The notes under the pieces were generated by a model. It ran no database searches. It was not told where the DNA came from and was given only the letters and a program-made list of their open reading frames with translations. From the IMG/VR virus record IMGVR_UViG_3300045988_159010: a stretch of 64,000 nucleotides of DNA. The stretch is one strand, 5' to 3'. The position numbers were made by a program, and so were the translations under genes. Position 1 is the stretch's first letter. Each line of letters opens with the position of its first letter. Source of the stretch: a virus. Positions 36,880 to 39,003 of this stretch are shown one piece after another.

Positions 36880-39003
36880 TTAGTTCTCCTTTTTAAAATC
36901 AAAAATTGTTTTTAATTCTTCTACTTTATCGAGCTGTTCCCAAGGGCTATTGCATTCAATGCGACCAAAATGACCGAAGCAAGCATAGGGCAGATAACGA
37001 GTATGCTTTAAATCAAATTTATGAATAATACTGCGTGGTGCAAAATCAAATGTCTGATTAACTGCATCAAGAATTTCAGCAATAGGTTTCTTCTCTGTGC
37101 CAAAACAATTAATATCAATAGATGCAGGTTCTGTCTGCCCAATGATATAAGCAACTTGAATCATGCACTTATCGCAAACGCCAGAAGCTACAAGATTTTT
37201 AGCTACATAACGTGCCATATATGCACCACTACGGTCTACCTTACTGGGGTCTTTGCCGCTAAAACAATTGCCTGTAATAAAAACTCGATTATTATATCTT
37301 AATACAAGATTATGAGAAGGTACATTAATACAATACATCCAAGGATCATTATCTTCATAATCTTCAATAGTTAGATTGGCAATTGAAGAACCTGAAGTTC
37401 TGAATGGAGTAGAATATTTATATTTACCTTGTCTTACTTCATAACAAATACTTCTACGAGTATAATTTTCACTGAATGTTTCACCTATTCTATCATCAAT
37501 AGAAAAATGAGAAGATGTGCCATAAACTGCCATAAAAATAAATTGAATAAAATCGGCTTCATCTTTATGTGTGGTTCTAAAAACACAATCTCTATCTCCA
37601 TCCCATTTAATTACTTCATCAGCAATTATTTGAGCTTGATGCAAATTGCATTTAGATAAACATTCATTCATTTTTTTATTTACGAAGGAAGGCTTATACC
37701 AAAAAATACTACAATCATTATCTGGGGTTTCCTTATAATCAAGTCCTGTTGAAGCGAATAGTTTTCTTAATGCCTCTTTTTTATATTTCTTTTTAACTCT
37801 AATTCTTCCAGTCCATCCTGAATTCTCTTTTAGAATAGTACCATCTGCACAAAATGCTACTTGAAGTCTAATTTCATCATCAGTTAAATCAAGGCCAGGA
37901 TTATCCTTAAAATCATAAGTAAAATAAATAGGGATTTGAATACTTCTAAACCCATTATTTTTATAATAATAGTCTAAAATTTCTTGACAAGTTTTCTTCT
38001 GATAATTTCCTTTAGATGTTTTATAGAGAACATTATGATTATCAGATAATATCATATCCAATGATTTATTAGTAGCAATATGATACATTTTAGTTTTAGG
38101 TAGCCTTACAAATTCACCATTAACAAATGAAATCTTGCCATCATCCCATTGAGCTACTTTATCATCTGAAGAAAATTCAGAGATTTTTTTCCACCCATTA
38201 AGGGTTAAAAATTCTGTATCTCCATTTACGCATCCACCACCATGCGGAGCGTAGCCACCATATGTATCTACAACGATTTTACGTCCTGTTAATCCAGTAT
38301 CAGCCTGGGGACCGCCCTTCACAAACTTACCTGTTGGGTTAATATAAAATTTACAATCTTTTTTAATGGCATAACCTTGAAGGGCAATATTACAAATGTT
38401 CGTAATATCGGGCGTTATTTCCTTAATACTATACTTGTCTTTGTGTTGGGCCGATACGACAATTGTATCTACCCCTTCAAAGTTGCCATCATCATCGTAT
38501 TGGACAGTTATCTGGCATTTGCCGTCAGGTAATGCCCAAGGTAGCAAATCATTTTTATACTTACTAAACATAATGACCGAGATATTGTTAGCAAGTTGCT
38601 GAGCGATAGGCATATAATTTTCTGTTTCATTGGTTGCATAACCAAACATCATGCCTTGGTCGCCAGCACCATCCCTATCAACACCCGCAGCGATGTCAGG
38701 GGATTGATTTACTACATTAATAATATATGAACAAGTGTCGCAGTTAAATCCTGCTTCATCATTGTCATAACCAATAAATCTTAAAGTCTCTCTTGCAATT
38801 TCCTGATAAGGAATAGATTGTTCTGTTTTAGCTGTAATTTCTCCCATAATATGGAAGATGCCTGGGCTAATAGTACATTCACAAGCTACTCGTGCATCAG
38901 GGTCAAGCTGGAGGACATAATCCAGAATAGCATCACTTACCTAATCACAAACCTTATCAGGGTGACCGGCAAAAACACTCTCACTGGTAAATAAATAACT
39001 CAT
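36880..39003 (-). CDS. metK: S-adenosylmethionine synthetase (MetK) interrupted by an intein; one in-frame TAG (38941-38943) aligning with conserved Gln
   Basis: GGAGGAAATATTAT-ATG; N-terminus [30 protein letters not shown] versus E. coli GHPDKIADQISDAVLD; GAGDQGMMFGYATNET; C-extein CFSGKDPSKVDRSGAYMARYVAKNLVASG...QVAYIIG...YACFGHFGR; host split at HGGG^(A/C)FSGKD. Confidence 0.7.
37267..38232 (-). mobile_element. intein (about 322 aa) with LAGLIDADG-type homing-endonuclease domain inside metK
   Basis: starts CVNGDTEFLTLNG (block A), contains LQVAFCADGTILKE, ends ...VLRYNNRVFITGN followed by Cys plus-1 (CFSGKD). Confidence 0.55.

Novelty: stop-codon recoding is known in gut phages, but this window gives a clean homology-based calibration of the amino acid.
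How to check it: 1. Re-call genes with translation table 15 versus 11 and compare coding density and ORF length distributions.
2. Align the recoded MetK, Dcm and rSAM products to homologues and tabulate which residue aligns with each TAG.
3. Look for TAG depletion in the GC-rich block.
4. Mass spectrometry of virions, if available.
What would refute it: Any of the following:
- Homology alignments place the TAG positions at gaps or ends of domains.
- The joined proteins lack the downstream conserved segments.
- A second frame explains the downstream motifs.
Basis: partly seen in the sequence, partly recalled or inferred. Interest (0 to 1): 0.8.

Follow-up and report, generated by a model that had tools for sequence, protein, structure and literature searches.

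Recoding of TAG is known from gut phages. Borges et al. (2021/2022; bioRxiv 10.1101/2021.08.26.457843) described TAG-recoded gut clades, among them Lak, crAss-like, Sapphire, Agate, Garnet and Amethyst phages, and detected a TAG suppressor tRNA in only 40% of the TAG-recoded genomes. The same TAG pattern and its proteomic validation are found in that study and in Peters et al. (2022; PMC9523058). In the Phassvirus group, with the 136-kb human gut phage phAss-1 (Babkin et al., 2023; PMC10607447), TAG occurs in many characteristic ORFs, and deposition under the standard code mis-annotates the genes.

We analyzed a 64-kb stretch of DNA (the window), which is a portion of the ~185–195 kb genome of a large uncultured tailed phage. 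Searches with DNA and protein (megablast with 25 kb, tblastn with a 547-aa protein) revealed no relatives among GenBank/INPHARED phages, and the matches of its radical SAM (rSAM) protein among GenBank phages were below 40% identity. No terminase was found in the window. The GC content ranges from 26 to 41%, so that the GC-rich block presumed by the original prediction does not exist as a truly GC-rich one. Window genes have strong Shine-Dalgarno sites, which on general grounds would suggest a host from Bacillota rather than Bacteroidota. As judged from the evidence below, the phage very probably uses translation table 15, in which TAG encodes an amino acid, almost certainly Gln, while TAA and TGA terminate.

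Results

TAG behaves as a sense codon

Homology across the sites, exchanges with Gln codons and a likelihood ranking of residues agree with the earlier proposal that TAG is a sense codon here, most likely for Gln (table 15), and we regard this reading as supported. Alignments supported by homology include at least 14 TAGs, from six genes, and no TAA or TGA. Homology was detected on both sides of TAG in MetK, rSAM, two GIY-YIG genes, Dcm and a protein with an Mtd_N domain (Table 1); the TAGs said to fall inside functional motifs of rSAM, GIY-YIG (9691–10314 and the gene ending at 50070), Dcm motif I and Mtd_N are thus real. For 17 genes we calculated the chance of a frame free of TAA and TGA past the first TAG, taking the density of off-frame stops in the gene concerned; with logs added up over the genes, this amounts to 10^-172. 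When three independent assemblies of 88–96% identical DNA were compared, the in-frame TAG was kept in 56 of 63 cases. Three independent exchanges between TAG and CAG or CAA were seen among near-identical relatives, and exchanges at TAG sites were mostly of the synonymous type, with CAA and CAG.

Among 80 well-supported genes, 59 end at TAA and 21 at TGA, as expected if recoded frames terminate only at these codons. TAG is carried by 18 of them (~22%); the ~25 genes originally listed with in-frame TAG therefore shrink to 18–19 well-supported ones. The comparison of tables 15 and 11 that had been recommended favored recoding, as greedy coding coverage was 0.788 under code 11 and reached 0.886 once TAG was counted as sense. 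Statistics on raw ORFs, computed with each stop codon taken as sense, were non-discriminating, since TAA as sense also lengthens ORFs in AT-rich DNA, and so was the read-through length after each stop type in six frames; raw ORF statistics were replaced by non-overlapping gene sets, homology and comparative tests.

TAGs near C-termini align to CAA in relatives, and these alignments extend beyond them. Termination at TAG may nevertheless occur in a few genes with TAG near the end (29697–31415, 53237–53971); two or three such cases are ambiguous. The public proteins of the lineage show Q at TAG sites, which translation of the DNA with table 11 does not give. Judged from the sequence, the recoding in the window is confirmed as real, with the Gln residue derived from alignments.

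Table 1. Features of the window: TAG-containing genes, the MetK intein and the tRNA array
Feature	Coordinates	Strand	Details
880-codon fibre protein	1108..3750	-	TAG at codon 864
Tail-fibre-like protein (Mtd_N)	5018..5533	-	2 TAGs, then C-terminus LNGGDANTLN
Tail-fibre-like protein, Mtd_N domain	5537..6610	-	TAGs at codons 35, 354; Mtd_N aa 5–43
tRNA gene array, ~14 tRNA or tRNA-like genes	7334..14988	-	ARAGORN, Rfam, custom scans; no CUA anticodon
GIY-YIG homing endonuclease	9691..10314	-	2 TAGs in catalytic motif region; Pfam GIY-YIG aa 1–87
HNH endonuclease ORF	11670..12482	-	6 in-frame TAGs
Dcm-type C5 cytosine methyltransferase	13559..14530	-	TAG directly after motif I (FAGIGT-X)
233-codon ORF, 13.5% GC	15424..16125	-	6 in-frame TAGs, no TAA/TGA
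CXXX-repeat precursor peptide gene	16112..16726	-	1 in-frame TAG in leader; frame translation
Radical SAM peptide maturase, CXXX-repeat target family	16734..18077	-	8 in-frame TAGs
476-codon Zn-ribbon protein	18758..20188	-	TAGs at codons 23, 436; paralogue of 22678–24321, 29697–31415
275-codon ORF	21217..22044	-	TAGs at codons 19, 66
195-codon secreted-type protein	24952..25539	-	TAG at codon 82
MetK (S-adenosylmethionine synthetase) gene	36880..39003	-	707 codons, one in-frame TAG, stop TAA, strong Shine-Dalgarno
Class-1 intein (probable)	37267..38232	-	MetK codons 258–579; Cys1 to terminal Asn, +1 Cys
In-frame TAG, MetK codon 21	38941..38943	-	within GHPDKxxD-X-xSD motif
173-codon ORF	48486..49007	+	5 in-frame TAGs
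GIY-YIG endonuclease	49453..50070	+	10 in-frame TAGs vs 1 CAA, 0 CAG; Pfam match

MetK carries a single TAG and a probable intein

The MetK gene, whose ORF had been delimited exactly, starts with ATG at 39003–39001, with AGGAGG 8 nt upstream, and ends with TAA at 36882–36880. All three Pfam domains (N-terminal PF00438, central PF02772 and C-terminal PF02773) scored above their cut-offs. Of the signature motifs, GHPDK and GAGDQG are present, as is the GGGAFSGKD loop, which the intein splits into GGG/xFSGKD. S-AdoMet_synt_N spans aa 3–102, TAG included. The protein aligned to E. coli MetK with an E-value of 5e-107 in two stretches, aa 3–258 and aa 578–700, and TAG stands opposite Q in GHPDKIADQISDAVLD of the E. 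coli protein (phmmer). The predicted alignment of this TAG with Gln was thus reproduced, with homology on both sides; the TAG-spanning stretch is VCDQVSDAILDYVLQLDPDAR and the tryptic peptide across it would read VCD-Q-VSDAILDYVLQLDPDAR. The 20 codons before TAG hold the conserved LFTSESV..GHPDK motif and are preceded by a perfect Shine-Dalgarno sequence. A frame free of TAA and TGA after TAG has a chance probability of 10^-28.5, and codon 21 stays TAG in all of the relatives L006, L007 and L008. As the enzyme needs the GHPDK motif and TAG lies at codon 21, functional MetK would therefore be made only upon TAG read-through.

The Gln of this motif had been called invariant, which does not hold for viruses: in 77 other viral MetKs the column has R in 50, Q in 25 and I in one, and one lacks the motif. 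By itself, the MetK column could not separate Q from R. Nor does the claim of novelty as a homology-based calibration stand, as code 15 has been published and validated by proteomics, and the Logan/ENA protein collections already hold the exact MetK with Q at TAG.

The MetK ORF is twice the normal length because a probable intein of 322 codons lies inside it; the original prediction did not mention this element. It is flanked by HGGG and (A/C)FSGKD and interrupts the alignment with E. coli MetK exactly at its borders. The junctions read HGGG/C VNGD...FITGN/C FSGKD, with Gly instead of the usual His as the penultimate residue. L006 and L007 are free of the 322 codons, showing HGGG(A/C)FSGK, while L008 has them. 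Matches of the insert to TIGR01445 intein_Nterm (15.4 bits, cut-off 24.5, E=0.028) and, in the block F region, to PDB 6rpq (PhoCDC21-1 intein; E=0.79) were weak, and a Pfam search of the insert gave no match.

TAG in the rSAM cassette and other genes

The rSAM maturase matched TIGR04115 from end to end (418.9 bits over aa 33–397, above its cut-off). When we tabulated the residues of 120 homologues at its TAG columns, as had been suggested, Q was found in 118 of 120 at one column and in 80 of 120 at another, while a third had E in 70 and Q in 48. One TAG-site region lies around TFQVTDDCCLNCVYCYQGHK, and codon 67 is CAG in two relatives (L002 and L003). The adjacent precursor peptide scored 21.7 bits against TIGR04114 (cut-off 20). 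For the AT-rich ORF at 15424..16125, log10 P of an open frame by chance was -11.3, and its TAGs are kept in L002 and L003.

In the GIY-YIG gene at 9691..10314, TAG at codon 6 belongs to the GIY(Q) motif and is aligned with the Q of I-TevI GIYQIKN. One TAG of the HNH ORF lies in an embedded type II tRNA-Leu(UAG) (11948–12032). Some TAG columns are variable: in the Dcm-type protein, where PF00145 (aa 5–313) spans TAG, the codon stands opposite F of M.HhaI. Tail-fibre genes gave several exchanges. The Mtd_N domain of 5537..6610 includes the TAG at 6506–6508 (codon 35), which is AAA in L095 and L096, and codon 354 is CAA in L097. Codon 864 of 1108..3750 is CAA in L095 and TAG in L097; more distant relatives have ACC, GTT or AAT there, and the alignment extends beyond this codon. 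The C-terminal motif of 5018..5533 recurs after this TAG as LNGGNASTLI. In the Zn-ribbon protein the CxxC repeats go on past the second TAG, and both TAGs are kept in three relatives. Codon 82 of the secreted-type protein stays TAG in L002 and L003 and reads CAA in L001. The TAGs of the 275-codon ORF are kept in three relatives (log10 P of an open frame by chance -10.6).

TAG usage is mosaic

The sense reading had been proposed for the whole AT-rich 50 kb. The sense reading itself stood; its scope did not, as only ~22% of genes use TAG, which makes up ~13% of the Gln-type codons. TAG is carried by tail-fibre genes, homing endonucleases, the rSAM peptide cassette and other AT-rich genes nearly devoid of CAG, and the shares of TAG and CAG are anticorrelated (rho = -0.70). 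The TAG-rich segments (1–34.7 kb and 48.3–50.1 kb) have 2.6–40 TAG per 1000 codons vs. 0.5–0.6 in the TAG-poor blocks (34.7–48.3 kb and 50.1–64 kb). These two almost TAG-free blocks of small genes look like early, nucleotide-metabolism or host-takeover genes; the one at 50–64 kb contains a nucleoside deoxyribosyltransferase, a deoxyribonucleotidase-like gene and an antitoxin-like gene. MetK, with its one TAG, is an exception inside its TAG-poor block.

The tRNA array has no CUA anticodon

In the 64-kb window, ARAGORN (with and without introns), Rfam, two custom CUA anticodon-arm scans and a custom split-tRNA scan all failed to reveal a tRNA with a CUA anticodon. The same result was obtained for the arrays of the closest relatives together with flanking regions of 10 kb (~82 kb of contig 3300045988_152007, which has 188 kb) and for the arrays of relatives ~65% identical at the protein level. 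Judging by relatives, there are no tRNA genes in the 10 kb beyond each window end. No window-lineage contig was among the at least 80 loci, of the matches listed, at which viral contigs carry the suppressor arm CGGTCTCTAAAACCG of sister lineages, and scanning for the lineage-specific motif that precedes tRNAs led back to the known array alone. Neither RF2 nor GlnRS was present among the ~40 of ~100 ORFs that were scanned (Pfam, PHROGs, NCBIfam), and the 82 kb sampled likewise showed no aminoacyl-tRNA synthetase. In published cases of recoding, RF2 and GlnRS are optional, and a suppressor tRNA, detected in only part of the genomes, is not strictly a defining feature.

The tRNA gene at 8271–8341 (48.5 bits vs. 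the Rfam tRNA model) has a 15-nt anticodon arm exposing UUUAA and is conserved in a relative ~65% identical at the protein level, with compensatory changes in the anticodon and T stems. In both the tRNA-Lys(UUU) and the tRNA-Ile(UAU) gene, a tRNA-like element with NCCA at its end interrupts the anticodon loop, and the array also has a type II tRNA(CCA). The tRNA-Met, tRNA-Ala and tRNA-Glu genes lack an encoded CCA; weak RF02682 matches (24.9 and 24.5 bits, threshold 44) start exactly at the last base of tRNA-Met and tRNA-Ala, and a third RF02682-like sequence follows tRNA-Glu. An RNA ligase and genes of the RNA-repair type are encoded in the window, too.

Several suppressor candidates were rejected. 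Long-intron candidates of ARAGORN were only chimeras of adjoining tRNAs, while its 'tRNA-Trp(CCA)' and 'tRNA-Met(CAU)', considered as disguised suppressors, are actually tRNA-Ile(UAU) and tRNA-Lys(UUU). For a conserved 72-nt spacer (8522–8595) containing the hairpin GGGTT-TTCTAGA-AGCCT, we weighed the possibility of an armless tRNA(CUA); only 14 nt separate the hairpin from the next tRNA, and the spacer is laid out more in the manner of an HDV-like ribozyme or processing element. The tRNA at 8271–8341, with its possible UUA anticodon, is an unlikely suppressor, being destroyed in one TAG-using relative.

Alternative readings of TAG

Under the standard code the TAGs would be true stops, the genes would be split, truncated or decaying, and MetK translation would begin at Met53, the start chosen in the JGI/IMG annotation (36880–38847, 655 aa). 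Such code-11 ORFs do follow several N-terminal TAGs, and no suppressor tRNA was found. However, the LFTSESV..GHPDK motif and the perfect Shine-Dalgarno sequence lie upstream of the MetK TAG, rSAM would fall into 9 pieces and yet TIGR04115 matches it from end to end, the frames hold TAGs and never TAA or TGA, and the TAG positions are conserved and swapped with Gln codons; this reading is hardly credible. The standard-code track is indeed wrong, as claimed before: it gives the truncated MetK and breaks rSAM up, with pieces of 63 and 132 aa. That TAG is read as a residue other than Gln, e.g. Tyr, Trp, Lys, Arg or pyrrolysine, is very improbable, even though R predominates in the column of other viral MetKs, codon 83 of gene 18061–18342 shows one exchange of TAG with TAT, some TAG sites exchange with TGG, a 90-nt suppressor tRNA adjoins a 90-nt tRNA-Tyr in some sister lineages, and ARAGORN labels CUA anticodons as Pyl. 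In the likelihood ranking, based on 51 aligned residues from more distant recoded relatives, Q reached logL -121.6 vs. -154.0 for R, i.e. 32 log units above R, and was 35 above K. Moreover, an rSAM column with Q in nearly all homologues is TAG here, exchanges with CAA and CAG dominate, those with TGG lie upstream of Shine-Dalgarno-supported starts or in doubtful ORFs, and no pyl genes were seen.

With TAG taken as Gln, the mode of its decoding is one that we infer, because neither the window nor the ~82 kb sampled from the nearest relative yielded a CUA tRNA. Going by published code-15 phages, and by the sister lineages with their tRNA(CUA), TAG would be read by an amber suppressor tRNA that the phage itself encodes outside the window and that is charged with Gln. 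If such a tRNA is needed, TAG-containing genes would therefore be expressed only once it out-competes host RF1. TAG could instead be sense in a phage with no canonical tRNA(CUA), read by a non-canonical, edited or spliced tRNA or after RF1 inactivation, which we hold to be unlikely. In its favor, a CUA tRNA is absent from the window and sampled relatives, though the same array of sister lineages has one, and suppressor tRNAs are known from less than half of TAG-recoded genomes, 40% in Borges et al. (bioRxiv 10.1101/2021.08.26.457843). Two interrupted tRNAs were mislabelled by ARAGORN, and standard tools therefore miss or misread tRNAs here. The well-scoring and conserved tRNA at 8271–8341 could give a UUA anticodon reading UAG by wobble, and with RF1 inactivated the host tRNA-Gln(CUG) could read TAG as a near-cognate. 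Against this, a canonical suppressor may lie in the >100 kb of the genome beyond the sampled parts. The UUA candidate is fused to tRNA-Met, and hence destroyed, in relative 3300029858_000001, where in-frame TAGs are kept; a UUA anticodon would also read TAA, the main stop. Its G3:U70 pair, which by tRNA identity rules is presumably a sign of Ala, would not suggest Gln identity.

Discussion

Our preferred reading is that TAG encodes Gln in this phage, so gene calling in the lineage must use table 15. The JGI/IMG standard-code annotation truncates MetK and shatters the rSAM maturase, homing endonucleases and tail fibres. The mosaic of the window is in line with a published proposal in which TAG acts as a gate on late or costly genes until there is a suppressor, and the lone TAG near the MetK start is one possible gate on expression. 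How TAG is decoded is the point that matters, since the position that holds a suppressor tRNA in sister lineages is without one here. The lineage may, although this is quite unlikely, decode TAG without a canonical tRNA(CUA), via a processed, edited or other non-canonical tRNA or by disabling RF1; if true, this could account for some of the TAG-recoded phage genomes (~60%) without a detected suppressor tRNA. The interrupted tRNA genes may merit separate study.

One comparison is with sister lineages such as IMGVR_UViG_3300045988_151351 (201 kb) and _119030 (181 kb), which have a homologous tail-fibre module (72–76% identity to the 113-aa product of 718–1059). Their tRNA array is also homologous, sharing the interrupted tRNA-Ile(UAU) and a 76-nt tRNA(UAG). 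In these lineages a tRNA(CUA) in a 75-nt or 90-nt form, with unpaired 1:72 and G73, adjoins tRNA-Val(UAC), whereas the array of the window is without a counterpart of this part. phAss-1 (PMC10607447) differs in having three suppressor tRNA genes, with none found in the window lineage, and in its genome size, and sequence similarity between the two was not detected. Theta (HDV-like) ribozymes adjoin phage tRNAs (Kienbeck et al., 2024; PMC10879173), and the weak RF02682 matches are similarly placed; unlike those ribozymes, the window sequences score below the Rfam threshold and none of the three is on a suppressor tRNA.

In comparison with the clades of Borges et al., our phage showed no suppressor tRNA, RF2 or aminoacyl-tRNA synthetase in the sampled 82 kb, and its auxiliary MetK would be gated by a single N-terminal TAG. 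As in those clades, only a fraction of the genes is recoded, ~22% in the window vs. 26–71%. The phage further resembles them as a large uncultured phage of low GC with TAG aligned to Gln, TAA as the preferred stop, structural genes recoded, homing endonucleases heavily recoded and a standard-code-compatible block left; in those clades, too, a suppressor tRNA is not always detectable. With the code-15 crAss-like phages (Peters et al., 2022; PMC9523058) it shares TAG read as Gln in phages of standard-code hosts, there based on direct peptide evidence and here on comparative evidence only. The code-15 change in gut phages is thus already published and validated by proteomics, and this ~190-kb lineage, absent from GenBank phage records, joins the list of recoded phages as one further case.

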